A DNA stretch of 62,548 bases, the filler included. It is 6 parts of 6 records of this genome, joined end to end, with 100 filler letters (N's around TTAATTAATTAA, not from the genome) between each part and the next. Parts side by side here need not be neighbours in the genome. Positions count along the whole stretch, not along the records: positions 1 to 20,491 come from SRR31156797_29260; 5 more parts are not named here. The stretch is one strand, 5' to 3'. The position numbers and the translations under genes are program-made. The first letter of the stretch is position 1, and each line of letters begins with the position of its first letter. This document shows, piece after piece, positions 1 to 44,203 of this stretch. The notes below the pieces were generated by a model that saw only the letters and a program-made list of their open reading frames with translations, made no database searches and had not been told where the DNA came from.

Positions 1-500
1 ACCGTACACATGCTGCTGATTTCCACATTTTTATCGGTCTGCTGGGAAATAGCTCCCAAATCCTCCAGGCGGACCTCCAGCGCTTTTGCGATCACTTCCA
101 GGAAACGGCCTGTACCTGCGGCACATTTGTCGTTCATTATGAAATTCTCCACCCGGCCGCCATTGCCGATGCGGATGACCTTGCTGTCCTGGCCGCCGAT
201 ATCCAGGATGGTTGCCGCATCCGGAAACAGGAAATGGACACCGGCTGCGTGGCAGGTGATCTCGGTGACGTTTTTGCCGGAAAACGGCAGGTTGTCACGC
301 CCGTACCCCGTGGTCACCACAAAATCCACATCCTCTTGCGATAATCCGGCCCGGTCCAGTACCTGCTGATACACCCGCTCACCCGATTTTCGGCTCCTGC
401 CGCCGGTCAAATCAATGGTAGATCCTAAAATTTTTTTATCATCACCCAACACAACGCCCTTGGTGGCAAGGGAGCCGGAATCAATACCAATTGTAATCAT
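1..500 (-). CDS. 2-hydroxyacyl-CoA dehydratase activator (HgdC/FldI/BadFG-type ASKHA ATPase with [4Fe-4S]); 3' end truncated by window edge
   Basis: Absent from the ORF track because there is no stop in the window. Manual translation from ATG at 500: MITIGIDSGSLATK...TTGYGR...TEITCHAAG...DIGGQDSK...MNDKCAAGTGRFLE...ISSMCTV. ATGA overlap with the upstream stop; AGGAG RBS. Confidence 0.95.
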   Translation of the reverse strand, partial: MITIGIDSGSLATKGVVLGDDKKILGSTIDLTGGRSRKSGERVYQQVLDRAGLSQEDVDFVVTTGYGRDNLPFSGKNVTEITCHAAGVHFLFPDAATILDIGGQDSKVIRIGNGGRVENFIMNDKCAAGTGRFLEVIAKALEVRLEDLGAISQQTDKNVEISSMCT

Positions 501-1819
501 ACTTCACTCCTGTTTTTGAGCATCTCCGCAAATGCGTCTATCCGTATTTTGACCTGGGAAAATGAATAGCCCCGGCTGTCGATGAAATCGCCGTCTATGT
601 CCAGCATGGCGATGCCTGATTGGGTCAGGCGGTCCCTGATAATCTGGTTCACGCTTAGGTGGCGGCGGCAGCCCCACTGGTTGAACCGTATAATTCCATC
701 TATGCCGTATGGCTCAAGCACGTCAAATTTTGTATCATCAATGCCGGCAAAGTGCAGCTGCCGCTTGGCCATATACATGTAAGGGTCCTTTTCCGCCAGC
801 AACTCGTCGAGATTCCGGGTCATGGCCGGCATGAGATTTGACATGACTTCCAAGCCGCACGTCTCTTCCATATATCTGATAATTTCATTGTTGTAAAAGG
901 GCATCAGCCCATCCCATATCACCCGGGGCCTGTCTTTGGCGCGGGTTTGCCCTGCGGTTTCAACTAAATCCCGCAGCTCTTCATAGCAGAGCCGGACACC
1001 CTGGGTGGCCTCCGGTGCCCCCATCCTGCTGAGATGGGTGGTGGTGTCGGTGGTGAACTTATGCACCGACGGACAGACCTGATGGGCAAGGGAGAGGGAG
1101 ATCAGTTTTTCGTAATAGCGCATGGTCTCTTTGGATTCTGCCACCGCGGCTGCAATACGGTCCGGAACGGCCGTGACGCCCAGGGTATTCTCCACTTGGG
1201 CCACCATCTCTTTCATGCGTTGGGCCAGGTATTGGGCTGCCGCATTGCCCCGGCGCTCGGGCATATCCAGAAGGAACCAGGGGCAGTCGTAGGTATCGCT
1301 CAGGGCGTAGAACATCCTGGCTCCGCTGTCGCAGGGGAAATAGGCAAAGGTGATAAAATCCGGGGTGGGCAGGCAGTTTTCCACGGCCGCGCCCAGCACA
1401 CACCGGACCACCGGGCAGATATCCCTGGAAAGGTGGTTTTTTTCCGCAATATCCAGGAACGCTCCGGCCACCCCGGCCGCGGCCAGGAAATAGGAGAGGA
1501 CCTGCCCGTTAAAGGGTACGAAGTTCAGGGCGGACACGATCTCGGAACAGACCACGTTTCCCACGAACATGACCCGGGAGTCTTCCAGGTAGGCATCCTG
1601 GAACCCGCCTGCATTGGCAATTGTTCTCTCCACGGTGGAGGCCGCCCTGTTCTCCGGCAGCGAAAAATCAACTGCTTGGCCGGTACGGCCCACGATCCGC
1701 ATGAAGTTTTCCAACTGTATGCTTCTCTTGGATTTGGTCGGCTGTGCCGTTCCACCGGGCATGCCAAACCCTTTTTTCGCCATCAATTTTTTCAGCAACT
1801 TCTCTTTATCCGATAACAT
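497..1819 (-). CDS. 2-hydroxyacyl-CoA dehydratase subunit (HGD-D family Fe-S protein) with N-terminal docking-like extension
   Basis: Cys motifs DIC, PCD and QWGCR; C-terminal IDGDFIDSR...QVKIRIDAFAEML typical of the family; adjacent to its activator. Start moved from 1849 to ATG 1819, which follows an AGGAG RBS. Confidence 0.9.
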   Translation of the reverse strand: MLSDKEKLLKKLMAKKGFGMPGGTAQPTKSKRSIQLENFMRIVGRTGQAVDFSLPENRAASTVERTIANAGGFQDAYLEDSRVMFVGNVVCSEIVSALNFVPFNGQVLSYFLAAAGVAGAFLDIAEKNHLSRDICPVVRCVLGAAVENCLPTPDFITFAYFPCDSGARMFYALSDTYDCPWFLLDMPERRGNAAAQYLAQRMKEMVAQVENTLGVTAVPDRIAAAVAESKETMRYYEKLISLSLAHQVCPSVHKFTTDTTTHLSRMGAPEATQGVRLCYEELRDLVETAGQTRAKDRPRVIWDGLMPFYNNEIIRYMEETCGLEVMSNLMPAMTRNLDELLAEKDPYMYMAKRQLHFAGIDDTKFDVLEPYGIDGIIRFNQWGCRRHLSVNQIIRDRLTQSGIAMLDIDGDFIDSRGYSFSQVKIRIDAFAEMLKNRSEV

Positions 1820-1840
1820 ATCTCTCCTGTTACACTGCTT

Positions 1841-1894
1841 ATTTACCATGAAGAAATGCGTTCTTCATGCTCTTCATGTCTTTCATGGTGAAAA
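1841..1894. repeat. Imperfect inverted repeat built from 9-10 bp CTTCATG units (REP/MITE-like remnant)
   Basis: ttaccatgaagaa...ttcttcatgc tcttcatgtc tttcatggtgaaaa: three tandem TTCATG units; the outer arms ACCATGAA/TTCATGGT can pair. Confidence 0.5.
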
Positions 1895-1973
1895 ACTAAT
1901 TTAAACTTTATGGTAAAAACAAAACCCGGTAGTACCCCTACTTTTTTTAACAAATAGGTCCTTGCTGGTGCCG

Positions 1974-4900
1974 TCAGGCGTCACCCAGGGCCGCCCTGAT
2001 CTCCTCTTCGGACATCCCGTCGATTTCTTTTTGCAGGTGCGCGATGGTATCCACCTGTCCTTTTTGGGGCTCATGGGCAATTAATTTGCGGGTAATACCG
2101 GCAACCGTGGGAGCCTCAAACAGTTCCCGCACGACAATCCTGATTTCAAACAGACTCTGCACACGGTTTACCAGCTGCACCACCAGCAGGGAATGGCCGC
2201 CCAGGGCAAAGAAATCATCATGCCTGCCCACACGCTTTACCCCCAGCACTTCCGCCCAAATTTGGGCAACGATCTCTTCGGCAGGCGAAGCCGGTGCCTC
2301 ATACCCTTTGGTGGAGGTTAAAAGTTCCGGCGCGGGCAGTTTCTTCCGGTCCACTTTGCCGTTGGGGGTCAGGGGCAGGGCGTCAAGCAGTGTAAAATGG
2401 GCAGGTATCATATAATCGGGAACGCTTTTTTTGAGCCATTCCCGCAATTGGGGGACCAGTGAGGGGTCGTCGAACTTGCCTTCTCCTGTTATGTAGGCTG
2501 ACAACCGTTTGTTATCACCATCTTCCACCAATTTTACCACCGTATCCCCAACTGCCGGATGCCGGCGAAGCACGGATTCGATTTCCCCAAGTTCAATGCG
2601 AAATCCCCGCAGCTTGACCTGGTGGTCCATCCTGCCCAGAAACTCGATATTGCCGTTGGGAAGCCATCTTGCCAGATCACCGGTTCTATAAATCCGCTCT
2701 TTTTTCCCCAGAATTTTTATTTCATTAAATTTTTCGGTGGTCAGTTCCGGGCGATTGAGATAGCCCCGGGCCAGACCCGCGCCTGCGATGCACAGTTCGC
2801 CGGGAATGCCTGGGGGCAACGGTTGAAGATATGGGTCCATGATGTAGATGCGGGTGTTGGAGATGGGCCGGCCGATGGGTATCACGGTCCCCCCATCAAT
2901 ATGGATGGGCCGGATTGGGAAAAGCGTTGCCGCCACCGTAGTTTCCGCCGGGCCGTATGAATTCAATAACACCGGAAACGCCCCAAAGTGTTCCAACCAT
3001 CGTTCAACGTGTTCAGCTGAAACCGCCTCACCGCCGATCACCACCAGACGGATACTTTTGGGCCATAGTTTTTTAATGGTGGGCAGGTCCGTGAGCAGAC
3101 TGTGCCAAAAGGCCGTGGGCAGATCCAGCACAGTCAATTCATGGGCTGCGCAGGCCGTCAGGAATGTTTCGGTGGATCCGATCATTTCCTGGTTGCGCAG
3201 GATGAGAGCAGCACCCGAAACCAGGGTCATGTGGATCTCTTCCACGGCTGTATCAAAACTTAGCGAGGCGAATTGCAATACCCTGTCATGGCTTGTCAGG
3301 CCGTACGCATCAATTGCCGATCTAATAAAATTGCCCAGGCCAAGATGATGAATCATGACCCCTTTGGGGCTGCCGGTGGTGCCCGATGTGTAGATTACAT
3401 ATGCCAGATCAGCCGCCTCAATTTTTATGGCCGGATTTTGCCGGGATTGGCCGGTTAGGTCCAGATCATCCAACGAGACGACAGCAAAGGCCTGTTCCGT
3501 TTCCCCCAGGGGCAGCCGTGGCTTCAGAGTGCTTTGGGTCAGCACCAGGGACACGCCGCTGTCATCCAGGATATGGCGAATACGGGCCCCGGGATAGCCT
3601 GGGTCAACCGGCACGTAGGCGCCCCCTGATTTGAGGATGGCCAGCATGCCGATGACCATTTCCGGGGAACGGTCCATAAATATTGCGGCCAGCGGATTAT
3701 GCCCTGCTCCGAATTCAGGATGTGATAACAGGTGGTTGGCTGCCTGATTGGCCTTTTCATTCAGTTGTCCATAGGTCAGCCGGCTTCCTTTGGAAATTAC
3801 GGCAATACGGTCAGGGGTTTTCGCTGCCTGCCACTCAAACAGGTCGACAATGGTGGTGTCCGCCGGCATATCCGCGGCCGTGTCATTCCAGGATTGCACC
3901 AATGCCGCCTCCTTAGGCGTCAACATGGGCAGGTGGCTGACCGGTTGGGCCGGGTCGTCTGCCATGGCTTGCAGCAGCACCTGGAAATGGCCGGCCATCC
4001 GTTCAATGGTGGATGGCTGGAACAGGTCGGTGGCATATTCCCACCAACAATGCAGTTCCCCGTCCCGCTCCTCCATGTTCAGGCTCAAATCAAATTTGGA
4101 AATGGGATAATCAATGGGCAGGGACGTGACTGCCAGGCCCGGCAGATCCGGTGAGACCAGGTCATTGTTCTGTAGTCCGAACATCACCTGAAACAATGGG
4201 CTGTGGCTCAGGCTGCGGGTGGGTTGCAGCTGTTCCACCAGCATCTCAAAGGGGATATCCTGGTGGGAATAGGCTTCCAGGCAGGTTGTGCGGGTGTCTG
4301 CCAACAGGCCTGCCACGCTTTGGTCCGGATGAAGCCGGCTGCGCAGCACCAGGGTATTGACAAAAAAACCGATCAGGTCATCGGTGCTGCTGTGGGTGCG
4401 GTTGGCAATGGGGGTGCCCACGCAGACATCATCCATGCGGCTGTACCGGAAGAGCAGGATGTAAAATCCTGTGAGCAAAGTCATGAAAAGGCTCATGTTC
4501 AGCTCGCGGCTCAAGCCATTGAGTGCTTTTGCCAGGTCCGGCGGCAAAGAGGTGAAATAATGGGCGCCTTTATAGCTTTGCTGGGGCGGCCGGGGGGTGT
4601 CCAGGGGCAGTTCAAGCAGCTCCGGGGCATTGGCAAGCCGCCCTTGCCAATAGTCCACCTGCCGTTGCAGGACCCTGCCTTGCAGCCACTCGCGCTGCCA
4701 GATCGCGTAATCACCGTACTGGATGACAAGCGGGGGCAGGTCCGGCGCTTTGCCTTGGGAAAAAGCGGTGTAGGCCCGGTGCCAGTCCCGCATGAATACG
4801 CCCATGGACCAGCCGTCACTGATAATATGGTGCATGTTCAGCAAGAGTACCGATTTTTGCGCCGTAAGACGCAGCAGGTCAGCCTTGAACAGGGGGCCCT

Positions 4901-7900
4901 GGTCCAGGTCAAAGCAGATGCCGGCATGGCGTTGGGTATGGGTTTGGATCTCTTCGTCCTGCCTCTCAAGTGACAGTCCGGCAGGATTTTGAAGGGTCAG
5001 GTCGTGGATGCCCAGGACCTTTTTTTCGCCGGGTGCATGAATTTTTACCACCGGTTGTCCGTCCCGGGTGGGAAAGGTACTCCTCAACGCGTCATGGCGG
5101 CAGATCAGCCAGTGCAGGCTGCGTTCCAGGGCTTCAATATTCAGCTCACCCGTCAATTCAAGTGCCCCAGGCATGTTGTACACGTCGGTGCCACTGTCCT
5201 CCAGCTGGTTGAGAAACCAGAGACGCTGTTGGGCAAAAGATAGGACTTGGGGGATCTCATCCGGCTGTTTGTGGATGGAAGGCAGGCTGGCCGTGGTGCC
5301 GGCTGTATCAATGGCGTTGGCCAGCTCATTCAGCCGGGGATGCTCGAAAACCGCGCTCACCGGCAACTCCACCTGGAAATTGTCCCTGATCCGGGCGATG
5401 AGCTGGGTGGCTGACAGGGAATGTCCTCCCAGGTCAAAGAAATTGTCATGACGATGCACCGTTTCCCGCCAAAGCAGTGTGCCCCAGACGCCGGCCAAAA
5501 TTTTTTCGGTGGAGGTGACCGGCTTTTCACCGGCAGCGGTTTCCGCCTGGGGCAGGGGCAAAGCCTTGCGGTCGGTTTTACCGTTGGGTGTCAGCGCAAA
5601 TCTTTCCAATACCATGAAGTGGCTGGGAATCATATAATCGGGCAATAGGGATTTGAGCCGTTCTTTCACTTCGGCCGGATTAATCAGCGAACCGGCTTGG
5701 GGGGATTTGTCCCCGGTGAGATAAGCGATGAGGCGCTTGTCATTGTCAACCCCATGCAGTGTGACGACAGCTTCCTTGACGGATGGGAGCTGGCCCAGAA
5801 CGGTTTCGATTTCCCCCAGCTCAATGCGGAAGCCCCGCAGCTTGACCTGAAGGTCCATGCGTCCCAGGAACTCAATGTCGCCGCCGGGCAGCAGGCGCGC
5901 CAGGTCTCCGGTCCGGTAGATGCGCTGGGGCTTGCCGAAAATTTCGATTTCAATGAATTTTTCTTGGGTCAGCCCGGGGCGGTTAAGATAGCCTTGTGCC
6001 AGGCCCGGTCCGCCCGTGACCAGTTCCCCGGGGACACCTACGGGCACAGGTTGCAGGTTTTCATCCACGATGTAAACCGTGGTGTTGGCAATGGGCTTTC
6101 CAATGGGAATGGAACTTGTGTGTGCCTGGCGATTGATGGGATAACAGCAGGTAAAGGTGGTATTTTCCGTGGGGCCGTACCCGTTTACCAGCCGAGTATT
6201 GGGCAGCAGCCCCACTGCCTTTTCAATATGGGATACGGACAGGGTTTCCCCGCCGGTCATCAGCTGTTTGACCCCTTGCAGCGCATGGGGGTGCTCCTCC
6301 AGCATGACATTGAACAGGCTGCTGGTCAGCCATAAAATGGTGATTTTTTCCCTGCCTAACACCTTGGCAAGGGATGCCAGGTCCTTTTGCCGGGCCGGCA
6401 TAATCACGAGCTTTGCGCCGTTTAGCAGGGCGCCCCAGATTTCCAGCGTGGCCGCGTCAAAGGAGACCGGCGCATATTGGAGAAAGGTCTGGGTTGAATC
6501 CAGTTGGGCAAAGTTGTTGTTTTTCACCAGCCGGACCACAGCCTGGTGGGGAACGGCAACGCCCTTGGGCTGCCCGGTTGACCCCGAGGTATAGTTAACA
6601 TAGGCCAGACCAGTCACCTGGATGACCATGTCGGGGCGAGCCTTTGGCAGGCCGTTCACATCAATTTCGTCCAGAAAGACCGGGCGGCAAAGGGGGGGCA
6701 TCTCTTCCAGGGGCAATTGTGTTTTCAGGTCACTTTGGGTGAGCAGCAGGTGCGCGGCGCAATCCTTAAGCATATACCGGATCCGGTCGGCCGGATAAGC
6801 CGGGTCAATGGGAACATAGGTCCCGCCCGCTTTGAGAATACCCAATACCCCAACCACGGTTTCAAATGAACGTTCCAAAGCGATGGCGATCAAGGGCGTG
6901 TCCGGCTTTTCTGCCATTTGGACCTTCCGGCTGAGTCCGGATATGTAGTGGGCCAGCTGGTTGGCCTTTTCATCCAGCTCGCGGTAGGTAAGGCACCGCC
7001 CTTCAAAAGCCAAGGCAATGGCGCCAGGCGTTTTGTCCACCTGGATCTGGAACAGGTCCACGATGTTGCTCTCTTTGGGGTAGGCCGTGGCCGTGTCATT
7101 CCAGGTCTGCCATGCGGCCGTCTCCTTAGGCGTAAGCATGGGCAGGTCTTTGAGGCGCTGGGCCGGGTTGTTCGCAATGGCGGTGAGCAATACTTCAAAA
7201 TGGCCTGCCATGCGTTGGATAGTGGCTGCCTGGAACAGATCTGCGGCATATTCCCATTCACAGTACAGGGCGCCGTCCCGCTCCTCGGCGTTGAGGCTCA
7301 GATCAAATTTGGCCACAGGGAACTCAACATCCAAAGCCGTGGTCTCGATACCCGGTAGATCCAGGCAGATCGGGTCATTGTTTTGTACCCCCAGCATTAC
7401 CTGGAACAGGGGACTGTGACTCAGGCTGCGGCGGGGCTGAAGCCGCTCCACCAGCATTTCAAAGGGAAGATTCTGGTTTGCATAGGCGTCCAGGCAGGTT
7501 TTGCGGGTATCTGCCAACAGATCGGCAACAGATTGGTCCGGCCGGAGCCGGCCCCGGAGCACCAGGGTATTCACGAAAAAACCGATGGTCTCATGGGTGT
7601 CGCTGTGGGTGCGGTTCGCAATGGGCGTGCCCACGCATAGATCATCCACCCGGCAATAACGGGACAGCAGGATATAATAGGTGCTGAGCAGGGTCATGAA
7701 AAGACTCACGTTCTGCTTGCGGCTCAATTCCGTGAGGCGCTTGGTCAAGGCAGGTGACAATCGATGCAGGTGCCGACCGCCCTTAAAACTTTGGCGTGCC
7801 GGCCGGGGGGTGTCCAAGGGCAGTTCCAGCAGTTCCGGGGCACCGGCCAGTTGCAGGCGCCAATAGTCCTCTTGTTTTTGCAGCACCTCTCCTTGCAGCC

Positions 7901-10900
7901 AGTTGCGCTGCCAGGCCGCATAGTCCACGTACTGGATGTAAAGCTGCGACAGGTCCGGCTCTTTGCCCTGGGCAAACGCAATACAGGCCTGCCCCAGATC
8001 CCGAATCAGCACGCCCATGGACCAGGCGTCACTGATAATATGGTGCATATTCAGCAGCAGCACCGACTTTTCCCGGCCCAGTATCAGCAGGGCAGCCTTG
8101 AACAGGGGCCCCCGGCTCAAGTCAAAGGGCTCGACGGCATGGCGGTTGGCACGGTTGCGCACGGCCTCATCCTGTTCACTGGGAGCAAGTCCGGTGAGAT
8201 CATGAATTGCCAGGATCTGCTGGTCATCGGGTGCCTGGATCTGCACCACGGCCTCTCCTCCCTGGTCCGGGAAAGCGCTCCTCAGGGAATCATGGCGGCG
8301 GACCAGCCATTTCAGGCCCTGCTTCAGGGATTCGATATCCAGGTTGCCGGACAATTGCAGGGCTGTGGGCATGTTATATACCGCGCTGTTATTTTCCTCC
8401 AGGCGGTTCAGGAACCACAAACGCTGCTGGGCAAAGGATAGGCTTGGGTCTGCACCATCCGGCTGTTTGCGGATGGGTGGCAGACCGGCTGTGCCCATGG
8501 CAGCTTCAATGGCCTTTGCCAGGTCTGCCAGCCGGGGATGGTCAAAAACGGCCCGCACCGGCAGTTCTACCTGGAAGCCGTCCCGGATCCGGGCGGTGAG
8601 CAGGGTGGCTGTCAGGGAGTGTCCGCCCAGGACGAAAAAATGGGCCTGCCGGTTGATTGTTGCGCCGCTGAAAAGCCCGGACCACAGGCCCGACAATATC
8701 TCTTCGGTGGGTGTGGCCGGCCTGTTGTTTTTGGCAGTGGTTCCGGCCTGGGGATCGGGCAATGCCTTGCGGTCTATTTTGCCGTTGGGGGTCAACGGCA
8801 GTCTGTCCAGAACCATGAAATGATTTGGAATCATATAGTCGGGTAACTGCTGTTTGAGCTGTTCTCTTAATTGGGCCGGTTCAAGCCCGGATTCAGTTTC
8901 ATGGGATTGGGCCGAACTTGTGATATAGGCGGCCAGCCGCCTGTCACCATTGGTTTCATACACGGTTACGGCAGCTTCTTTGACAAAGGGGTGTTGTGCC
9001 AGCACCGCCTCTATTTCCCCCAGTTCGATGCGGAAACCGCGTAGTTTGACCTGGTGGTCCAGTCGTCCCATATAGTCCAGGTTGCCGTCAGGGAGAAACC
9101 GGGCCAGGTCTCCGGTTTTGTAGATACGTTCGGTTTTGCCGAACAGTTGGATCTCCACGAATTTTTCAGCCGTCAGCCCGGGACGGTTGAGATACCCCCG
9201 GGCAAGCCCTGCGCCGGCAATGCATAGTTCCCCCGGAATGCCCGGCGGGACGGGTTGGTTGTGGGTATCCAGGATATGGATGCGGACGTTGGGAATCGCT
9301 CGGCCGATGTGAGGCGCACCATCTTGGTCCGGGGAACAGACAGCCATGGTTGCGCAAACCGTATTCTCGGTGGGCCCGTAAGCATTGATAAAACGGACCT
9401 TGCCGGCCCATTGGCCCATCAGTTCCGCCGGGCAGGCCTCACCGGCCACTACAAGGGTTTTCAGCCCCTGGAGGGCCTGGCTTGGCAGGTTGTTGACGAA
9501 AGAGGGGGGCAAGGTGACATGGCTGATTTTTTCATCAGCCATCAAGGCGGTAAATTCCGTTGGATCCAGCAGGGTGTATTTGGACGCGATGTATAAGGTC
9601 CCGCCACTCAACAAAGTGGTGGTGATTTCAGAGACGGACGCGTCAAAACTAAAAGAGGCGAACTGTAACACCCGGCTGTCCGGCAGGAGTTGAAAAGTCT
9701 CGATTTGTGAAAAAACCAGGCTGACCAGCCCGGCATGTTCAATCATCACGCCCTTGGGCTTCCCGGTGGACCCCGAGGTATAAATCACATAGGCCAGGTC
9801 CGTCACGGTGGGGTTGGCCGAGAGATTATGCTTAGGCTGTGACCGGATTCCGTGGTCATCCAGGCAGATGACTTTCTGTGCCGTCGTATCAGTCGTACCA
9901 ATCGTATCAATGGAGAGGTGGGTTTTTAATCCGGCTTGAGTCAATAGCAGGGCAGGGGTGCTGTCCGTCAGCATATATTTGATGCGCTCCGCCGGATAGG
10001 TGGGGTCAATGGGCAAATAGGCACCTCCTGCTTTGAGTATCCCCAGAAGACCGATAACCATCTGGGCGGACTGCTCCACCGCAATGGCAATCAAAGGATT
10101 CTGCCGGTCCATTGATGCTGGAAAATGTTGCACCAGGTAATGCGCCAACCGGTTGGCGCGTTCATTGAGTTCGCGGTATGTTAACCGTTCGTCTTCAAAC
10201 ACAATCGCAATGGCACACGGCGTTTTTTCCGCCTGGTTTTCGAATAGCTCGACAATGGTTTCACCGAAGGGGAACTGCCTGGTGGTCTTGTTCCAGTCAA
10301 TGAGGCACCGGGTTTCGGCTTGGGTGAGCATGGGCAGGGTATGGATCTCCCGGTCCGGGGACACTGTGATACCTTCCAGGAGCACTTGCAGATGTTCTGA
10401 CATCCGTTGCACGGTTTCAGGCAAGAAGAGATCGCTGTTATAGCTCAAGCAGCCTGAAAGGGCACTTTTATCATCGTCAAAGGTCATGGAAACATCGAAC
10501 TGCCCTTCCATCTGGTCAAGGGCAATGCTGTGGGCTGTTACGCTTCCAGTGAAAAATCGCTTGGGGATCAGGGCCCGGGTCTCATAGGCGAAAAACGCCT
10601 GGACAAGGGGTGGATAGCTGGGGTCTCGTTCCGGCTGCAATTGTTCCATGAGCAAAGGGAAGGGATAGGGCTGGTGGTCCAGTCCGGTAAGTATCCGGTG
10701 CTGGTTTATCGCCAATTTTTTACGGAATGTTATTTGCGCTTCTTTGGGGAAACTTGCGCGCACTACCATGGGATTGACCAGGTAGCCCACCATGTCGTTA
10801 AACTCCCGGCGGCCCCGGACCGTGGAGGTGGGCACTCCCACAAGGATCTCCTCCTGGTCGGTATAGCGGTGGAGCATTATTTGGAAAGCGGTGAACAGCA

Positions 10901-13900
10901 CAGTGAACAAGGTACATTGCTCCCGGCGTGCTAAGGCCCTGAGCCGGCCGGTCAGTTCCGGGGGCAGGGTAAAGCGCAATGAGGCGCCGTTAAAAGTCTG
11001 TAGCCTTGGTCGGGGCCGGTCCGTGGGGAGCTGGAGAATGGATACGTGGCCTGCCAGCGTCTGATGCCAATAAGCGGCCATTTTTTCCTTTTCACCACCT
11101 GCCAGCAGGCGCTTTTCCCATTGAACAAAATCGGCATAGCCAGCCGGTAATGCGGGTAAATTGGCTTCTTTGTCCTGTATTTGAGCATCGTAAAGCGCAC
11201 AGATTTCTCTGCCTATGATGGCCATGGAACGGGCATCTCCGGCAATATGATGGAGTCCAAGCAGCAGCAGGGGGCCCTGCCGGGCATTCAGGAATCCGTC
11301 CACACGGAAAACGCCCTGTTCCAGCACAAATGGCTGTTGGGACGCTTGTCGCACCTCATCCATCAGCCGCTCTTCATTCCAGTCCGATGCGTCCCATTGG
11401 CGGTACGCAGGTTCCAGGGTTGGATCCACCCATTGGCAGGGCCGGCCATTTTTTTCAGCCACGCGGCTTTGCAGCATGGAATGGCGCGTGGCCAGTCGTT
11501 GCAGGGCGTGCTTGAGCAGGTCCGGATCCAGTCCGGTTTCGAACCGGAGCAGCAGGCCGGTGTTGTAAGCCGGGCTTTCAGGGGCGTTTCGGTAGATGAA
11601 CCAGAGGGCCTGCTGACCCGCTGACAGCGGAGTAAAATCGTTTTGGCCCCGGGCGCCTGTTTTACCTGTTTCTTCTTTAATTGGAAGGTGAGCCGCAAGG
11701 CCCGTCAGGGTGGGGTGTTCCAGGATGAGAGCGCTTGACAGGTCTGTTTCCCGGCCCATGAGGCCTTGGATCCGGTTGCGCAGCTCCATAGCCATGAGCG
11801 AATCCAGCCCCAGGTCAAAGAAATTGGTGTCAGGGTCCGGCAGGTCGTCCAGCCCCAAAATGGCCTGTAATGCCTGTTGAAGGCGATGAACCAGGGGTTT
11901 ATCTTCCTTTTCCTGGGACGCCCGGGGTGCAGGTTCCTCCAGCGCGGCTGTTACATCGTTTGCCGGATGGGGGGACGCGTCAGCCGTTTGAGTTGTTTGC
12001 ACCCAACAGCGGTGCCGCTGGAAAGGGTATGTGGGCAACGCCACTTTTCGCCGGGGCCATGGGGCGTCCCATGCAGCCCAGTCGGGATTAGTCCCGGCCA
12101 TGTACAGGCGCGAAAGGGCCTGGGCTGTTTGCCGGTTGTCCTCTGTTTTCCGGCGCAGGCTGGCGGCCGCGACCGGGGCTTTCCCTTCCGGCCAGCAATG
12201 CAGCGCCATGGCAGCAAGCACAGGGTGGGGACCGATTTCCAGCAGGATGTTGGCGCCCAATTTCGCGACAGTCGAGCAGCTTTTGGCAAACTGCACGGGT
12301 TTCCTGCTGTGGCGACGCCAATAGTCGCTGTCCGGCAGGTCAACCGGACTGAATGCGTTTCCGGTCAGATTACCGACCAGGGTGCGTTGGGGCGGCTGGA
12401 AGTTAAGGGTGGCCGCAAATTCGGCAAACTCATCCAGAATGGGTGAAAGCAGATGGGAATGGAAAGCCTGGCTGGTTTGCAGGCCCTGGATGCGCACGCC
12501 TGCCTGTTTAAACTTGCCCGCCACGGCATTCACCTCCGCTTCAGGTCCGCTGATGACCTGGTGGCCGCCGTTGTATGCCGCAATGGACAGCCCGGTGCCT
12601 GTTATGGCCTCGTCCACTTCGGCCGGCTGGGCAAAAATAGCGGTCATAGCCCCGCCCAGGGGCAGACCGCCCATGAGCAGACCCCGCCGGGTGACCAGGT
12701 GCAATGCATCTTTCAACGAGAATGCGCCCGCGGCATAGGCGGCCGTATACTCGCCCAGGCTGTGCCCCATCACCACATCCGGTTCAATACCCAGGGACCG
12801 CCACCATTCATACAGGGCCACTTCCAGGGAAAAAAGCGCGGGCTGGGTATAACGGGTTTGGTTGAGCTCTTCCCCGTGAGCCGGATCAAAAAGAAGGGAT
12901 GTGAGGGGGATATCCATCAAGGAATCTAAAATGGCGGCACACCGATCCAGAACTTTTCGGAATATTGGCTGGGTGTCATAGAGCCCCCGGCCCATGCCGC
13001 TATACTGGCTGCCCTGGCCGGTGAACAGCATCGCCACCACAGGGGCTTGCCCGGATTGGGCCGGGGGCGTCTGGGACAGGCGTTTTGAAAGTTGATCCAA
13101 GGTGTCAACCACGACGGCTGTCCTGTGTGCAAAATGGTCCCGTCCAGTGGCGGCGGTAAAGCAGATATCCGCCAGGGGGAGATCCGGATGCCGGTCCAGC
13201 CATTGGCCGTAACGGGCAGTCAGGTCCGCCACTGCCGGTCCTGTTTTCCCGGATATCGGTAAAATGTGCACAGGGCGCCGGACCACATTATCCCCAAGCG
13301 CTGTCGGCGCGTCTCCAGCTTCAACCAGCAGGTGGGCATTGGTGCCGCTCATGCCGAAACTGCTGATGCCTGCGATCCTGGACGTGGCAGGCCAGTCCCT
13401 GGTGACGGTCGACACCTGGAACGGCAGTTTGTCCCAGGGGATACGTGGATTGGGGGTCTTGAAATGGGGCTGCCCGGGAATCCGGCCGTGACCCATAGCC
13501 AGGATCACCTTGATAAACCCGGCAATACCCGCGGCTGCTTCGGAATGGCCGATGTTGCTTTTTACCGAACCGATGGCCAGAGGTCGTTCCGGGTCACGGC
13601 CGGGTCCGTACACCCTGCCCGCAGCCTGCATTTCCAGGGGATCTCCAAGTATGGTGCCGGTGCCGTGGGCCTCCAGATAACCAACCTGGTCGGGCGTAAG
13701 ATCGGCCCGTTGCAGGGCGGTGCGCAGCAGCTTTTCCTGGGCCGCGACATTGGGCACGGTCAAGCCGCCGGAGGGGCCGTCGTTGTTAACGGCGCTTGCG
13801 CGAATGACTCCGAGGATATTATCCTGGTCTTGCCGGGCGTCTGCCAGGCGCTTGAGTACCACCATGCCGCACCCTTCCCCCCTGGAAAAGCCGTTGGCAG

Positions 13901-14606
13901 AGGCGTCAAAGGCCTTGCTGCGCCCGTCCGGACTCAGGGCCTTGGCCCGTGACAGAAAAATATAGTTGTGGGGGCTGAGTATGACCTGGACTCCGCCTGC
14001 CAGGGCCAATTCACACTCTTTCAAGCGCAGTGCCTGGCAGGCCGTATGTACGGCCACAAGGGAACTGGAACAGGCCGTGTTTATGGACTGGGTTTGGCCC
14101 TGCACGCCCAGGACATAGGCGATGCGTCCGGCTACGAATGCCTGGAGATTGCCGGTACCGCTGTAAAGATCGATTTGGGCCGGGGCCTGAAACGCGGCCC
14201 GGCCATAGTCATTGTCACAAACGCCCACAAAGACGCCCACCTCGCAATTTCTAAGGCTGCCCGGCGCAATGGCAGCGTTTTCCAGGGCTTCCCAACTCAC
14301 CTCTAAAGCCAGTCTTTGCTGGGGATCAATGGCGTTTGCCGCACGGGGCGGTATCCCGAAAAAAGCGGGATCGAATTGGTCCACCTGGGACAGGAAACCA
14401 CCGTACCGGGTGGTGATGGTTCCCGGCTTTTCCGGATCAGGATCGTAAAAGGCATCCACATCAAAGCGGTCAGGCGGGATCTGGGTAATCGCATCTCCCC
14501 CCTTTTCCAAAAGGTCCCAAAAGGCTTCCGGATTTTCTGCGCCCGGGAAGCGGCATGACAAGCCTATAATCGCAATATCGAACTGGGTGTACTCTTTTGA
14601 CGCCAT
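1974..14606 (-). CDS. Hybrid type I PKS-NRPS: KS-AT-ACP-C-A(Tyr)-T-C-A(Val)-T-C-A(Lys/Arg/Orn-like)-T; no KR, TE or R domain
   Basis: KS motifs TACSSSL, HGTGT, KSNIGH; AT motifs GHSLG and QAFHS (malonyl-like); ACP GLDSL; C motifs HHIAGD, HHIISD, HHIISD; three A domains (YTSG.TG.PKG, YGP.E, TGD, NGK); three GGHSL T domains. A-domain codes read by eye against GrsA: DASTVAAVCK, DALWMGGTFK, DTEDVGSVAK. Confidence 0.95.
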   Translation of the reverse strand: MASKEYTQFDIAIIGLSCRFPGAENPEAFWDLLEKGGDAITQIPPDRFDVDAFYDPDPEKPGTITTRYGGFLSQVDQFDPAFFGIPPRAANAIDPQQRLALEVSWEALENAAIAPGSLRNCEVGVFVGVCDNDYGRAAFQAPAQIDLYSGTGNLQAFVAGRIAYVLGVQGQTQSINTACSSSLVAVHTACQALRLKECELALAGGVQVILSPHNYIFLSRAKALSPDGRSKAFDASANGFSRGEGCGMVVLKRLADARQDQDNILGVIRASAVNNDGPSGGLTVPNVAAQEKLLRTALQRADLTPDQVGYLEAHGTGTILGDPLEMQAAGRVYGPGRDPERPLAIGSVKSNIGHSEAAAGIAGFIKVILAMGHGRIPGQPHFKTPNPRIPWDKLPFQVSTVTRDWPATSRIAGISSFGMSGTNAHLLVEAGDAPTALGDNVVRRPVHILPISGKTGPAVADLTARYGQWLDRHPDLPLADICFTAATGRDHFAHRTAVVVDTLDQLSKRLSQTPPAQSGQAPVVAMLFTGQGSQYSGMGRGLYDTQPIFRKVLDRCAAILDSLMDIPLTSLLFDPAHGEELNQTRYTQPALFSLEVALYEWWRSLGIEPDVVMGHSLGEYTAAYAAGAFSLKDALHLVTRRGLLMGGLPLGGAMTAIFAQPAEVDEAITGTGLSIAAYNGGHQVISGPEAEVNAVAGKFKQAGVRIQGLQTSQAFHSHLLSPILDEFAEFAATLNFQPPQRTLVGNLTGNAFSPVDLPDSDYWRRHSRKPVQFAKSCSTVAKLGANILLEIGPHPVLAAMALHCWPEGKAPVAAASLRRKTEDNRQTAQALSRLYMAGTNPDWAAWDAPWPRRKVALPTYPFQRHRCWVQTTQTADASPHPANDVTAALEEPAPRASQEKEDKPLVHRLQQALQAILGLDDLPDPDTNFFDLGLDSLMAMELRNRIQGLMGRETDLSSALILEHPTLTGLAAHLPIKEETGKTGARGQNDFTPLSAGQQALWFIYRNAPESPAYNTGLLLRFETGLDPDLLKHALQRLATRHSMLQSRVAEKNGRPCQWVDPTLEPAYRQWDASDWNEERLMDEVRQASQQPFVLEQGVFRVDGFLNARQGPLLLLGLHHIAGDARSMAIIGREICALYDAQIQDKEANLPALPAGYADFVQWEKRLLAGGEKEKMAAYWHQTLAGHVSILQLPTDRPRPRLQTFNGASLRFTLPPELTGRLRALARREQCTLFTVLFTAFQIMLHRYTDQEEILVGVPTSTVRGRREFNDMVGYLVNPMVVRASFPKEAQITFRKKLAINQHRILTGLDHQPYPFPLLMEQLQPERDPSYPPLVQAFFAYETRALIPKRFFTGSVTAHSIALDQMEGQFDVSMTFDDDKSALSGCLSYNSDLFLPETVQRMSEHLQVLLEGITVSPDREIHTLPMLTQAETRCLIDWNKTTRQFPFGETIVELFENQAEKTPCAIAIVFEDERLTYRELNERANRLAHYLVQHFPASMDRQNPLIAIAVEQSAQMVIGLLGILKAGGAYLPIDPTYPAERIKYMLTDSTPALLLTQAGLKTHLSIDTIGTTDTTAQKVICLDDHGIRSQPKHNLSANPTVTDLAYVIYTSGSTGKPKGVMIEHAGLVSLVFSQIETFQLLPDSRVLQFASFSFDASVSEITTTLLSGGTLYIASKYTLLDPTEFTALMADEKISHVTLPPSFVNNLPSQALQGLKTLVVAGEACPAELMGQWAGKVRFINAYGPTENTVCATMAVCSPDQDGAPHIGRAIPNVRIHILDTHNQPVPPGIPGELCIAGAGLARGYLNRPGLTAEKFVEIQLFGKTERIYKTGDLARFLPDGNLDYMGRLDHQVKLRGFRIELGEIEAVLAQHPFVKEAAVTVYETNGDRRLAAYITSSAQSHETESGLEPAQLREQLKQQLPDYMIPNHFMVLDRLPLTPNGKIDRKALPDPQAGTTAKNNRPATPTEEILSGLWSGLFSGATINRQAHFFVLGGHSLTATLLTARIRDGFQVELPVRAVFDHPRLADLAKAIEAAMGTAGLPPIRKQPDGADPSLSFAQQRLWFLNRLEENNSAVYNMPTALQLSGNLDIESLKQGLKWLVRRHDSLRSAFPDQGGEAVVQIQAPDDQQILAIHDLTGLAPSEQDEAVRNRANRHAVEPFDLSRGPLFKAALLILGREKSVLLLNMHHIISDAWSMGVLIRDLGQACIAFAQGKEPDLSQLYIQYVDYAAWQRNWLQGEVLQKQEDYWRLQLAGAPELLELPLDTPRPARQSFKGGRHLHRLSPALTKRLTELSRKQNVSLFMTLLSTYYILLSRYCRVDDLCVGTPIANRTHSDTHETIGFFVNTLVLRGRLRPDQSVADLLADTRKTCLDAYANQNLPFEMLVERLQPRRSLSHSPLFQVMLGVQNNDPICLDLPGIETTALDVEFPVAKFDLSLNAEERDGALYCEWEYAADLFQAATIQRMAGHFEVLLTAIANNPAQRLKDLPMLTPKETAAWQTWNDTATAYPKESNIVDLFQIQVDKTPGAIALAFEGRCLTYRELDEKANQLAHYISGLSRKVQMAEKPDTPLIAIALERSFETVVGVLGILKAGGTYVPIDPAYPADRIRYMLKDCAAHLLLTQSDLKTQLPLEEMPPLCRPVFLDEIDVNGLPKARPDMVIQVTGLAYVNYTSGSTGQPKGVAVPHQAVVRLVKNNNFAQLDSTQTFLQYAPVSFDAATLEIWGALLNGAKLVIMPARQKDLASLAKVLGREKITILWLTSSLFNVMLEEHPHALQGVKQLMTGGETLSVSHIEKAVGLLPNTRLVNGYGPTENTTFTCCYPINRQAHTSSIPIGKPIANTTVYIVDENLQPVPVGVPGELVTGGPGLAQGYLNRPGLTQEKFIEIEIFGKPQRIYRTGDLARLLPGGDIEFLGRMDLQVKLRGFRIELGEIETVLGQLPSVKEAVVTLHGVDNDKRLIAYLTGDKSPQAGSLINPAEVKERLKSLLPDYMIPSHFMVLERFALTPNGKTDRKALPLPQAETAAGEKPVTSTEKILAGVWGTLLWRETVHRHDNFFDLGGHSLSATQLIARIRDNFQVELPVSAVFEHPRLNELANAIDTAGTTASLPSIHKQPDEIPQVLSFAQQRLWFLNQLEDSGTDVYNMPGALELTGELNIEALERSLHWLICRHDALRSTFPTRDGQPVVKIHAPGEKKVLGIHDLTLQNPAGLSLERQDEEIQTHTQRHAGICFDLDQGPLFKADLLRLTAQKSVLLLNMHHIISDGWSMGVFMRDWHRAYTAFSQGKAPDLPPLVIQYGDYAIWQREWLQGRVLQRQVDYWQGRLANAPELLELPLDTPRPPQQSYKGAHYFTSLPPDLAKALNGLSRELNMSLFMTLLTGFYILLFRYSRMDDVCVGTPIANRTHSSTDDLIGFFVNTLVLRSRLHPDQSVAGLLADTRTTCLEAYSHQDIPFEMLVEQLQPTRSLSHSPLFQVMFGLQNNDLVSPDLPGLAVTSLPIDYPISKFDLSLNMEERDGELHCWWEYATDLFQPSTIERMAGHFQVLLQAMADDPAQPVSHLPMLTPKEAALVQSWNDTAADMPADTTIVDLFEWQAAKTPDRIAVISKGSRLTYGQLNEKANQAANHLLSHPEFGAGHNPLAAIFMDRSPEMVIGMLAILKSGGAYVPVDPGYPGARIRHILDDSGVSLVLTQSTLKPRLPLGETEQAFAVVSLDDLDLTGQSRQNPAIKIEAADLAYVIYTSGTTGSPKGVMIHHLGLGNFIRSAIDAYGLTSHDRVLQFASLSFDTAVEEIHMTLVSGAALILRNQEMIGSTETFLTACAAHELTVLDLPTAFWHSLLTDLPTIKKLWPKSIRLVVIGGEAVSAEHVERWLEHFGAFPVLLNSYGPAETTVAATLFPIRPIHIDGGTVIPIGRPISNTRIYIMDPYLQPLPPGIPGELCIAGAGLARGYLNRPELTTEKFNEIKILGKKERIYRTGDLARWLPNGNIEFLGRMDHQVKLRGFRIELGEIESVLRRHPAVGDTVVKLVEDGDNKRLSAYITGEGKFDDPSLVPQLREWLKKSVPDYMIPAHFTLLDALPLTPNGKVDRKKLPAPELLTSTKGYEAPASPAEEIVAQIWAEVLGVKRVGRHDDFFALGGHSLLVVQLVNRVQSLFEIRIVVRELFEAPTVAGITRKLIAHEPQKGQVDTIAHLQKEIDGMSEEEIRAALGDA

Positions 14607-14656
14607 TGTGGTATCCCTAAAAACTAGATTATCGAGTTTTATTTATTTTTGCCTGG

Positions 14657-14911
14657 CTAACGGATCTGCCGGTGCTTGCCTTGGACAAATGCCGTCAAGG
14701 CATTGATCGACATAAAATGTTCCGGCACGATATCACCGTCATCAAAGGTGATGGTGTACTCTTTTTCTAGATGGGAGACCGTGTTGACGATGGTTAAGGA
14801 ATCCATGAAACCTGCGTCAATCAGGTTGAAGTCATCGTCAAACCCTTCGGGCGCAAGGCCTTTGAGGCATTGGTCAAGAATGTAGTCGCGCAGTGTCTGA
14901 TGTAGGTTCAT
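14657..14911 (-). CDS. Stand-alone acyl carrier protein
   Basis: 84 aa, acidic, with phosphopantetheine motif LIDAGFMDSL; lies between the ligase and the PKS-NRPS. Confidence 0.9.
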   Translation of the reverse strand: MNLHQTLRDYILDQCLKGLAPEGFDDDFNLIDAGFMDSLTIVNTVSHLEKEYTITFDDGDIVPEHFMSINALTAFVQGKHRQIR

Positions 14912-14982
14912 ATGTCTATGTTTAAAATTTTAGGGTTTAGGGTTAAAAGATCATTCGCGCTGGCCTGTAAAAAATCATAGTT

Positions 14983-16467: not shown

Positions 16468-16470
16468 GGT

Positions 16471-19716: not shown

Positions 19717-20257
19717 CTCCACTCCTTATGATTGTATTTTAAGGGACGCAGATTATGCAATAAATTATAAAAAGCTAAACCCATAGGAAAGAAAATTTTC
19801 CCAAGTTATGACATATAAATATATATTGATGAAAATCAATGGATAGCGATTTTTCTTTTATTAAGCAATGTATAACAAAGAATAAAAACATTATCAAGAG
19901 CTCGAAATATGGCTCCAACCAGGCATGACCCCATATGAAGATTTTCGCAGTTCAGATATTTATAAATCACGGTCATAACCAATGTCCGCCAAAGACCCAG
20001 GCGGGGTGTGTACATGTCATCGCATACCGGCTCCAGTATGCGTGAGAGCGGTCATTACAGGATTATTCGACAATTTCAATAAAAAGATGTTAAAAGATAT
20101 GATCCGGTCGGAATACGCTGCAAGCCGGGGTTTTTGAATAGTAAGGCATAAAGGTAAAAGGGATGCGACTTACCTGGCGCCCCTGATTTTTCCGTTACAT
20201 GTCATATTTAAGGTGAATGGGAACAAAAGAAACATAAGGGTAGTTGGAAAATTGAGA

Positions 20258-40018: not shown

Positions 40019-40091
40019 CCCGGCAGGTTTGACGCAACAGGATGATTCCCAGGCTTGAACTTTGCCCCCGGTTTGTTCCGGGAACAGGGGA

Positions 40092-44200: not shown

Positions 44201-44203
44201 ATT

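Follow-up and report, generated by a model that had tools for sequence, protein, structure and literature searches.

The ATP-activated [4Fe-4S] ketyl-radical enzymes take in the 2-hydroxyacyl-CoA dehydratases and the benzoyl-CoA reductases. Here we describe a clade of such proteins that is probably recruited to NRPS/PKS assembly lines, starting from a locus in a 62,548-nucleotide stretch of DNA (the window, filler included) in which all genes described lie on the minus strand. Like the dehydratases (HadBC/HadI, PDB 3o3m; HgdAB/HgdC), this type of enzyme combines two PF06050 subunits with a single BcrAD_BadFG ATPase gene and has three invariant cysteines in alpha; the best solved matches of its subunits include HadB (alpha) and HadC (beta), and the one-electron ketyl-radical logic of the dehydratases is probably common to it as well. 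However, alpha is only remotely similar to HadB (chain 3o3m_A, E 2e-10) and has about 50 extra N-terminal residues (query residue 120 corresponds to chain residue 69). In further contrast to the dehydratases, alpha has no CoA transferase to serve it but a T/ACP domain, as a partner or by fusion, and its substrate is probably a phosphopantetheinyl-carrier thioester, mostly N-acylated aminoacyl and not 2-hydroxyacyl. With the class I benzoyl-CoA reductases (BzdNOPQ, PDB 8s02; MbdN, 9g87) it would share the ATP-driven transfer of low-potential electrons to a thioester, but it has one ATPase gene instead of two and three genes instead of four, and nothing points to an aromatic thioester as its substrate. 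Among solved structures, alpha matches the double-cubane cluster protein (DCCP, PDB 7yyl/6eno; chain 7yyl_C, 7e-11) best, by a negligible margin over HadB. DCCP, too, is reported to have an ATP-dependent reductase partner (PMC9351452), whereas in the enzyme described here a separate beta-type subunit exists.

The assembly-line side of the arrangement also has known counterparts. NRPS/PKS docking domains (the TubC_N beta-hairpin, PKS Docking, COM helices) are, like the head and tail described below, short, paired and conserved termini of consecutive proteins that are dispensable after protein fusion, but here the protein on the downstream side is a radical Fe-S enzyme and not another synthetase. 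TE and R release domains share with the HGD-D domain of fused forms the position after the final T/ACP, but are unrelated to it in fold, in cofactors and in their source of energy: they are a serine hydrolase or an SDR that depends on NAD(P)H, whereas HGD-D is an Fe-S enzyme that uses ATP. A radical Fe-S enzyme occupies the assembly-line place normally taken by a release domain, an arrangement of which we found no report in the literature searched.

The synthetase and the genes that follow it

The synthetase is a hybrid PKS-NRPS of 4210 aa (1974..14606), identified by ORF and translation, in which Pfam detects KS, AT, four PP-binding, three Condensation and three AMP-binding domains in the order KS-AT-ACP-(C-A-T)x3. 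As an earlier note on this DNA had read it, the protein ends at its third T domain (T3; 2088..2273), which matches PP-binding over residues 12-73 of the last 110 aa and carries a GGHS phosphopantetheine-serine motif; Pfam found neither a TE or R domain nor a terminal C domain in the synthetase or in the other scanned ORFs of the window. The same note had allowed for a TE- or R-bearing NRPS just beyond the window start, and there is none in the 92%-identical locus of Desulfobacter vibrioformis (L001), where the activator is followed by a second HGD-D subunit and then by a convergent catalase-related gene. T3 itself is followed by a tail of about 33 aa (1977..2075), whose end has the sequence previously quoted.

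Between the synthetase and the next gene lies a spacer of 154 nt (1820..1973), and these two genes are not coupled. The spacer, as judged from its sequence and from alignment with L001 and L102, contains inverted copies of a CATGAAGA motif and an AGGAGA ribosome-binding site, and a scan of 1820..1973 gave no consensus promoter or terminator. The gene beyond it (497..1819) encodes the 440-aa alpha-type Fe-S subunit of the HGD-D family (PF06050, residues 90-434, 185 bits against a cut-off of 28.4). Its longest ORF starts at 1849, but the ATG at 1819 is the likelier start because it stands behind an AGGAGA and two relatives show conservation from this point on; the N-termini of the homologues are consistent with this choice. 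The alpha stop and the activator start share four bases (ATGA), which bears out the coupling proposed earlier for these two genes. The HgdC/BcrAD-type ATPase activator (1..500, with its ORF at 3..500; PF01869 at 4e-45, BcrAD_BadFG) is represented by the first 166 of about 260 aa, as the window edge cuts its ORF, and its L001 orthologue is full length at 260 aa with an identical 4-base overlap. The picture of a single HGD-D protein with an activator has to be amended, however, since a second, beta-type HGD-D gene follows the activator in all six related loci whose sequence extends far enough downstream (L001, L002, L003, L004, L103 and L104). The gene order in these relatives suggests a three-gene unit, alpha-activator-beta, of which the beta gene of this locus would lie beyond the window start. 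The best solved matches of the L001 beta protein are BzdN (5e-44) and HadC (5e-34).

Because of the PF06050 and BcrAD_BadFG matches, the ATGA overlap, the three invariant cysteines (C135, C163 and C384 across 27 homologues) and the beta subunit, we assign alpha on sequence grounds as the substrate-side subunit of an ATP-activated ketyl-radical family enzyme. Its similarity to any solved enzyme is remote (E about 1e-10) and its match to BzdO weak (1e-6), and its chemistry may have diverged from that of its solved relatives. The arrangement of a TE-less synthetase, a head-bearing HGD-D protein and an activator is confirmed as real.

Fused relatives and clade

In six proteins of other organisms, HGD-D is the C-terminal domain directly after a T or ACP domain. 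P0036, P0039 and P0041 read C-A-T-HGD-D, P0037 reads A-T-HGD-D without a C domain, and P0038 (L003) and P0040 read KS-ACP-HGD-D. Such fusions are five of the seven best matches (E<=1e-140) in a representative library of 1.84 billion proteins, and together with the head-bearing and the headless split forms they make up one small clade (SH-like support 98 with 27 rows, FastTree; SH-aLRT 93 with 29 rows, or 99 with P0029 included, IQ-TREE quick). The linkage to NRPS/PKS genes, for which genomic context covers 11 of the 27 rows of the FastTree clade, is specific to this HGD-D clade, and outgroup loci have no NRPS/PKS neighbours. At 76 other genome loci there were no C, KS, T or AT domains, with many outgroup contigs short and a short T query that could miss stand-alone carrier proteins; AMP-binding matches occurred there only at L005 and L072. 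Among 80 metagenome loci, NRPS/PKS domains were found at L102-L104 only.

Head and tail as a docking pair

The N-terminal head of alpha (1730..1819), delimited by alignments and a complex model, consists of a helix (residues 1-17) and a G/P/T-rich linker to about residue 30. The basic helical head and linker ahead of the enzyme fold were correctly read in the earlier note. The head recurs in 13 homologues at identities as low as 42%, L8, L9 and G17 being invariant, and is found only in split forms of the clade. The enzyme proper opens with a conserved helix, KR..QL.NF (residues 31-47; 1679..1729), in which R32, Q35, L36 and F39 are invariant and which lies on the NRPS side of the split in L004. 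In all five fused junctions that were read, the carrier end is followed by a linker of 8-25 aa and this helix, with neither tail nor head, and the fused forms align to alpha from about residue 28-30. The tail, in turn, is kept in five of five partner NRPS ends, with conservation no lower than that of the T domain. The conservation of head and tail is more than chance.

Every head-bearing gene with readable context (window, L001, L102, L103, L104 and L002; six of six) has an NRPS partner that ends in T plus tail. For L002, whose three-gene unit sits amid housekeeping genes, this partner lies on another contig and is the best T match of the genome (2e-32 against 1e-24 for the next). A head-bearing homologue unlinked to NRPS, named beforehand as an observation that would speak against docking, does therefore exist, but it is no refutation because its genome encodes an NRPS ending in T and the cognate tail. 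Presence in split and absence from fused forms support the view that head and tail form a matched docking pair, as had been proposed. The likeness to standard NRPS/PKS junction motifs claimed at the same time was not confirmed, as no Pfam docking family matched tail or head at E<=1.

The complex model also supports binding of the alpha head to the synthetase tail. This single-sequence language-model fold, run three times with the seed as sole difference, scored 0.68, a value that 51 of 78 solved complexes attained, as against 2 of 108 mismatched pairs, while the best of three controls scored 0.00; the runs agreed in at least 78% of contacts, with a partner pLDDT of at least 85. In the model, head residues 4-19 pack helix-on-helix against tail residues 81-107, and T residues 36-44, including the GGHS serine, contact alpha residues 63-77, among which R65, T66, F73, Q74 and Y77 are invariant.

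These data bear on one alternative, an ordinary CoA-dependent dehydratase that supplies a building block or merely neighbours the synthetase, with no direct link to a carrier. Such an enzyme would suit the 154-nt gap, which leaves alpha without translational coupling to the NRPS, the housekeeping surroundings of the L002 unit, and L005, where an outgroup alpha is adjoined by stand-alone AMP-binding ligases and not by carriers. It is nevertheless very improbable in view of six independent fusions directly after T/ACP, the clade-specific linkage to NRPS/PKS, the co-occurrence of tail and head in the six split cases and loss of both in the five fused junctions, the model score relative to its controls, and the tail-bearing NRPS elsewhere in the L002 genome. 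We consider it likely that the docked HGD-D enzyme acts on a T-bound thioester, having been recruited as a terminal component of NRPS/PKS lines; recruitment and carrier-bound action are well supported by the fusions, the pairing, the phylogeny and the complex model, and the fusion to the last T/ACP in six proteins speaks for the action on a carrier-bound thioester suggested earlier. The interpretation in the earlier note is supported in part. Throughout, we infer docking at T3, the substrate and the product from sequences and the model.

Proposed reaction and its alternatives

In some organisms alpha is a covalent C-terminal domain, and here it is a separate protein that would be held to T3 by tail and head. 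T3, and not coenzyme A, would be the carrier and would present the active site of alpha with its phosphopantetheinyl thioester. The activator would spend ATP to inject one low-potential electron, turning the thioester carbonyl of the last unit into a ketyl radical, whereupon the alpha-substituent would be expelled and a beta-proton lost, leaving 2-enoyl-S-T behind. With a 2-hydroxyacyl-S-T substrate this would be the ordinary dehydration of the family, whereas with a peptidyl-aminoacyl-S-T the C-alpha-N bond would be cut and the upstream chain freed as a primary amide. Taken alone, we put forward this elimination chemistry only tentatively. The A domains that precede HGD-D have six different specificity codes, which, with codes and meanings based on presumed residue positions, indicates backbone rather than side-chain chemistry. 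P0037, in addition to having no C domain, has an A domain without the FDxS aspartate, which we take to be the binder of the alpha-amino group, which is consistent with the loading of a 2-hydroxy acid or another non-amino acid on T and its dehydration there.

If C-alpha-N elimination is right, the enzyme would resemble the MtaG/MelG monooxygenase domain and peptidylglycine amidating monooxygenase, in which a last residue is sacrificed to yield a primary amide. The monooxygenase systems need O2, use glycine and have a TE that clears the remnant; here, in contrast, the last residue varies and needs a beta-hydrogen, with no TE close by. After C-alpha-N elimination T3 would still hold a 2-enoyl unit, and the cluster has no thioesterase to clear it. 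The PKS fusions do not directly fit alpha-elimination: the Cys-His-His residues of their last KS are present, so that the thioester on the ACP should be a 3-oxoacyl one, without a leaving group at the alpha position.

These two features of the PKS fusions, the functional last KS and the missing leaving group, would suit on-line tailoring, in which the docked or fused enzyme modifies the unit on the last carrier before the chain moves on or another enzyme frees it; 2-hydroxyacyl dehydration, prolyl ring opening by C-alpha-N cleavage and reverse hydration at C-alpha of an enoyl thioester are possible forms. At L004, alpha-activator-beta comes after a C-A-T module whose last domain is T, and beta itself is followed by an ATC-hydrolase-like gene, by a pair of B12-radical-SAM genes and by a PKS gene that starts with KS. 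This mid-cluster position suits tailoring as well as release, and gene order does not demand release because the unit precedes tailoring genes and a KS-first PKS gene; the L004 A-domain code is, moreover, similar to a code for proline. In D. vibrioformis, TE matches are confined to other contigs; stand-alone thioesterases encoded elsewhere in this genome would also suit tailoring. However, L004 gene order need not mirror the order of synthesis, and HGD-D is the very last domain in six of six fused proteins, in the place of TE or R. P0036 and P0041 open with a TubC_N docking domain, as is often seen in final subunits, and neither the window cluster nor the sequence beyond beta in L001, L002 and L003 contained a release enzyme. 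We regard tailoring in place of release as possible, if on balance doubtful.

Reductive release, in which ATP-driven electrons would be consumed as in benzoyl-CoA reductases and not used catalytically, would reduce the carrier thioester and free the chain as an aldehyde, an Fe-S substitute for the NAD(P)H-dependent R domain. Any thioester would serve, which fits both NRPS and PKS fusions and the six last-residue codes, and the carrier would be left free without a thioesterase. The best solved match of beta is a reductase subunit, BzdN, ahead of HadC, and the last A-domain code of the window has two acidic pocket residues, suggesting a basic residue of the kind that occurs in known peptide-aldehyde protease inhibitors. 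We nevertheless judge this route improbable. The single ATPase gene makes the gene content that of a dehydratase, class I reductases having two different ATPase subunits, and an ATP-driven system has no obvious advantage because thioester-to-aldehyde reduction is thermodynamically within reach of NAD(P)H. No member of the HGD-D family is known to reduce a thioester carbonyl, and the literature searched gave nothing to the contrary.

Two further genes lie upstream of the synthetase. A stand-alone AMP-binding enzyme (14983..16467; Pfam AMP-binding and AMP-binding_C) probably activates the starter acid of the cluster, as its position suggests. Next to it, a 1083-aa protein in which a P-type-ATPase-like region (E1-E2_ATPase, HAD hydrolase) is fused to an FAD_oxidored domain (16471..19722; Pfam) is a possible member of the cluster by strand and adjacency.

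Results

All of the relevant cluster genes lie on the minus strand. The hybrid PKS-NRPS ORF (1974..14606, minus strand) encodes a 4210-aa protein in which Pfam recognizes 1 KS, 1 AT, 4 PP-binding, 3 Condensation and 3 AMP-binding domains, a content that indicates the order KS-AT-ACP-(C-A-T)x3. The final PP-binding match stops 37 residues short of the stop codon, and the tail of about 33 aa that follows the third T domain (T3) is net acidic and ends with the residues quoted in the earlier note. Neither this synthetase nor the products of the two genes upstream of it gave a Pfam match to a TE, R or terminal C domain; these two genes encode an AMP-binding enzyme that stands alone and a 1083-aa fusion of a P-type-ATPase-like region with FAD_oxidored. 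The latter (16471-19722, minus strand) has an odd architecture, with Pfam matches to E1-E2_ATPase and HAD hydrolase and a C-terminal FAD_oxidored domain; its gene precedes those for the AMP-binding enzyme and the PKS-NRPS and may be a member of the cluster.

The synthetase gene is followed, after a spacer of 154 nt (1820-1973), by the gene for a 440-aa HGD-D protein, here called alpha (497..1819, minus strand). Alpha matches PF06050 with 185.1 bits (cut-off 28.4) over residues 90-434, spanning positions 4-342 of the 342 in the profile, and this is its sole Pfam match; no hydrolase, SDR or condensation fold is present. The longest HGD-D ORF starts at 1849, and we consider the ATG at 1819 the likelier start because it is preceded by AGGAGA and because both the nucleotide conservation with two relatives and the N-termini of homologues begin there. 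Three cysteines of alpha, C135, C163 and C384, are invariant in 27 sequences and also in a set of 13 sequences that includes fused forms and, by analogy with the HGD-D family, we infer that they serve as [4Fe-4S] cluster ligands. The alpha stop codon and the start codon of the next gene overlap by 4 bases, ATGA. This next gene encodes the activator, a BcrAD/HgdC-type ATPase that matches PF01869 (BcrAD_BadFG) at 4e-45 and is cut by the window edge at residue 166; its fragment has Cys at positions 125 and 164, which we take to coincide with the positions of the bridging-cluster ligands. ORF and Pfam analysis therefore bear out the gene order described in the earlier note, in which an NRPS without a TE is followed by a head-bearing HGD-D gene that is joined through ATGA to an activator gene. 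A scan of the 154-nt spacer returned 0 consensus promoter or terminator sites. A CATGAAGA motif able to form a hairpin is repeated in the spacer in both direct and inverted orientation; a longer version of this repeat occurs in Desulfobacter vibrioformis and none in the related locus L102.

This enzyme also occurs fused to carrier domains. A search for longer relatives gave five such proteins and the representative library added one, and 6/6 of them end in HGD-D, which follows the final carrier. P0036 and P0041 read TubC_N-C-A-T-HGD-D, P0039 reads C-A-T-HGD-D, and P0037 (1049 aa) reads A-T-HGD-D without a C domain. On the PKS side, P0038, identical to the 2019-aa ORF of locus L003, reads DH-KR-ACP-KS-ACP-HGD-D and the N-terminally partial P0040 reads KS-ACP-HGD-D; in L003 the HGD-D fusion is followed by an activator and a second HGD-D subunit, beta. 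The HGD-D domain thus shares the place of TE, R or terminal C release domains, as the last domain after the final carrier in all six fusions, but does not match their hydrolase, SDR or condensation folds. In the 1.84-billion representative library the HGD-D family is represented by 2987 members at E ≤ 1e-3, of which 475 reach E ≤ 1e-30. Of the seven best matches (E ≤ 1e-140), five are fusions, one carries a head and one is a short form. About 7/2987 representatives fall in the clade.

In the split forms, the space between carrier and enzyme is filled differently. In 5/5 fused junctions that were read, the last helix of the carrier is followed by 8-25 residues and then by the KR..QL.NF helix of the enzyme, whereas the window counterpart has, between the carrier helix and this KR..QL.NF helix, the 33-aa tail, a gene boundary and the head, the approximately 30-aa N-terminus of alpha. 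Accordingly, fused forms align with alpha only from about residue 28-30, and both terminal elements, at the C-terminus of the NRPS and at the N-terminus of alpha, are missing from the five fused proteins compared with the window. The head is kept in 13 split homologues at 42-91% identity, with L8, L9 and G17 invariant, and is not present in more distant relatives. All six head-bearing genes with readable context (window, L001, L102, L103, L104 and L002) are accompanied by a tail-bearing NRPS, a co-occurrence that rests on few independent lineages (about 3-4), and in 5/6, all but L002, an NRPS ending in T and the conserved tail lies directly upstream. Similar to NRPS/PKS docking-domain pairs, head and tail are thus terminally placed, occur together and are absent from the fused junctions. 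The earlier note had also likened them to standard docking motifs, a likeness that was not confirmed: none of the Pfam docking families (Docking, TubC_N and others) matched at E ≤ 1 in either the C-terminal 110 aa of the NRPS or the N-terminal 90 aa of alpha. In L103 and L104 the charge pattern of the window pair is inverted, with a net acidic head and a tail that is less acidic or more basic; counted by eye over few lineages, this may reflect charge compensation between partners.

A head on a homologue unlinked to an NRPS had been named beforehand as an observation that would speak against docking, and among the six genes with readable context it was met only in L002, from a Candidatus Magnetocorallium MAG, where the unit lies among YidC, HlyD, amylase and pyruvate-kinase genes. 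The L002 genome has 24 condensation-domain matches, and a different contig encodes an NRPS that ends in T and the same tail and gives the best T match in that genome (2e-32, residues 11-118/120). Because the cognate tail-bearing NRPS is present in the same genome, we do not read this locus as a refutation; the unlinked head-bearing gene rather speaks for docking. We also considered whether the tail is an ordinary T-C linker, and rejected this because a T-C junction of G001, aligned to residue 106, has no real likeness to it past T. The ACP-methyltransferase linker of G001 shares a short acidic E.EGLTEEEI-type stretch with the tail, so that this part of the tail is not unique.

Two further split forms show where the linker can be divided. 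In L004, a delta-proteobacterial MAG locus (9701-16724), the QL-type helix, with which the enzyme begins elsewhere, belongs to the NRPS tail, and 49 nt after the NRPS comes the gene for an HGD-D protein of 394 aa that lacks a head; the same linker is here divided at a different point. Downstream of the L004 unit lie an ATC-hydrolase-like gene and two genes for B12-binding radical SAM proteins, all within a trans-AT PKS/NRPS cluster. A second split form with a head, P0045, shares 59% identity with the fused P0038 but only 36% with the window protein, and this closer relation to a fused form indicates that fused and split states changed more than once. The P0045 head (residues 9-40) aligns with P0038 1554-1590, the last ACP helix and linker; the head may derive from carrier-domain sequence and not from a docking module acquired elsewhere.

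Modelling of full-length alpha with the last 110 aa of the NRPS, in a fold that did not use the alignments, gave a complex score of 0.68, a mark reached by 51/78 solved complexes and 2/108 mismatched pairs; the best of 3 controls scored 0.00. Between runs at least 78% of contacts agreed, and the pLDDT of the partners was at least 85. In the first modelled interface, head residues 4-19 pack against tail residues 81-107, and the best-defined pairs include head L8, L9 and L12 with tail positions 91, 95, 103 and 106; of these, L8 and L9 in the head and positions 91, 95 and 106 in the tail do not vary in the alignments. In the second, T residues 36-44, the stretch with the GGHS serine, and 58-63 face alpha residues 63-77, which hold the invariant R65, T66, F73, Q74 and Y77. 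The model therefore supports predicted binding of head to tail and of the T domain to alpha.

The region beyond the window start was read from relatives only. The closest relative, L001 from D. vibrioformis DSM 8776, encodes an alpha protein 92% identical over residues 1-440, and downstream of its NRPS come the head-bearing HGD-D, an activator of 260 aa whose gene likewise overlaps that of alpha by 4 bases, and a 378-aa second HGD-D, beta, after which lies a convergent catalase-related gene. The order alpha-activator-beta holds in 6/6 loci with enough downstream sequence (L001, L002, L003, L004, L103 and L104); the window ends inside the activator, and a beta gene would fall beyond its start. 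The window HGD-D protein is the alpha-type subunit. Its best solved matches are all remote (DCCP 7e-11, HadB alpha 2e-10 and BzdO 1e-6), and those of L001 beta are BzdN (5e-44), DCCP, HadC beta (5e-34) and MbdN. Class I benzoyl-CoA reductase has four subunits, two different BcrA/BcrD-type ATPase subunits among them. Here, a single ATPase gene lies between alpha and beta in all six loci; one ATPase gene with two HGD-D genes is a dehydratase-type gene set and not a four-subunit reductase set. Among outgroup sequences, HGD-D is also found fused to the activator (HGD-D + BcrAD_BadFG, as in P0115) or in tandem (P0062), and such fusions were noted at loci L042, L051, L061 and L129.

Head-bearing, fused and short forms fall into one group in the FastTree phylogeny of 110 rows (27 rows, SH-like support 98; P0004 and P0014 stand for the omitted L001 and L002), with the fused forms paraphyletic around the head clade. 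The IQ-TREE quick tree of 56 rows, which omits P0038 as identical to L003, has this group at 29 rows with an SH-aLRT support of 93, or 99 when P0029 is included, and joins P0045 to P0037 and L003 at 99. Among 80 genome loci, C/KS/T/AT domains occur only in L001, L003 and L004, and AMP-binding domains only in L005 and L072; among 80 metagenome loci, C/KS/T/AT domains occur only in L102-L104. Because contigs are often short and the T query has little power, the lack of hits in the outgroups is soft evidence. A close match was found in 1/401 genomes sampled from the phylum and 2/301 from the order and, together with the share of about seven library representatives, this marks the arrangement as rare.

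Discussion

First, our analyses place a known kind of enzyme in a new setting. To our knowledge, the described end-points of assembly lines are hydrolytic, NAD(P)H-dependent or formed by condensation-type domains, apart from a small number that are assisted by oxygenases. In the present case the terminal position is taken by an ATP-activated Fe-S radical enzyme, fused in several organisms and, by our model, docked in the window organism; the HGD-D enzyme kind is known and its proposed role in an assembly line is new. Our full-text search, outside which lay subscription-only papers and supplementary files, brought up no account of HGD-D/BcrAD-type proteins in NRPS/PKS lines; the papers that it returned were unrelated. 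If our reading is correct, strict anaerobes would gain an extra oxygen-free route to finish or edit NRPS/PKS products, the 2-hydroxyacyl-CoA dehydratase/benzoyl-CoA reductase family would reach from CoA esters to carrier-protein thioesters, and the head and tail would be a natural docking pair that recruits a non-synthetase enzyme.

Second, beyond the family, gene set, fusions and pairing, which can be read from sequence, we propose that the carrier would hand its thioester to alpha and that the activator would give one ATP-primed electron, as in the HGD-D family. The fusions to T and ACP domains and the modelled docking argue for a carrier-bound substrate and not a free (R)-2-hydroxyacyl-CoA. 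On the same evidence, it is very improbable that a CoA-dependent enzyme, working on the esters usual for its family, merely lies alongside the cluster. Six different specificity codes occur among the A domains that immediately precede HGD-D (at code positions taken from GrsA numbering), so that a last residue that is always the same can be rejected and the variety points to backbone chemistry. P0037 lacks a C domain, and its A domain has NHITG in place of FDxS and so lacks the FDxS aspartate; both features fit a non-amino acid, for example a 2-hydroxy acid, that is loaded on T and dehydrated there. This would be the HGD-D family's own reaction shifted onto a carrier, and of all members P0037 may be the simplest in which to test it.

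Third, we have considered what the enzyme could do to a peptide. On an N-acylated aminoacyl-S-T, the expelled group would be the amide nitrogen, which is about as acidic as water; this would yield a peptide primary amide and a 2-enoyl-S-T. Such an amide-releasing elimination, the first option of the earlier note, is possible, and we hold it tentatively. The last KS of the PKS fusions is catalytically complete, with Cys-His-His present. A non-elongating last KS, which would have helped elimination, is thereby rejected, and the thioester on these fusions would be a 3-oxoacyl one, which lacks an alpha leaving group. The further PKS genes downstream in L004 were likewise counted against elimination, and no thioesterase to clear the remnant was at hand in the window ORFs or next to the cluster in D. 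vibrioformis, where TE matches lie on other contigs and the cluster is flanked, after beta, by the catalase-related gene. On-line tailoring, in which the enzyme would edit the T-bound chain instead of freeing it, is an alternative that we hold about as tentatively, and the same KS and L004 findings speak for it. Reductive release appears unlikely; the gene set is of the dehydratase type. The fullest form of the elimination proposal, an undescribed terminal module, is rather doubtful: an ATP-primed ketyl-radical 'eliminase', fused or docked through head and tail, that would cut the C-alpha-N (or C-alpha-O) bond of a sacrificial last residue and free the upstream chain as a primary amide (or acid) without oxygen, its fused and docked forms having interconverted more than once.

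Finally, the window past 20 kb holds sugar-transport and unrelated genes. A low-GC island at about 40000-50000 (GC 0.26-0.34 versus 0.45-0.62 elsewhere) is probably acquired DNA; its genes specify a protein of 736 aa that has two HATPase-type domains, and also a rhodanese protein, an ALO/FAD-binding oxidase, a permease of the Mem_trans type, an amidase resembling AmiA and a HAD hydrolase.
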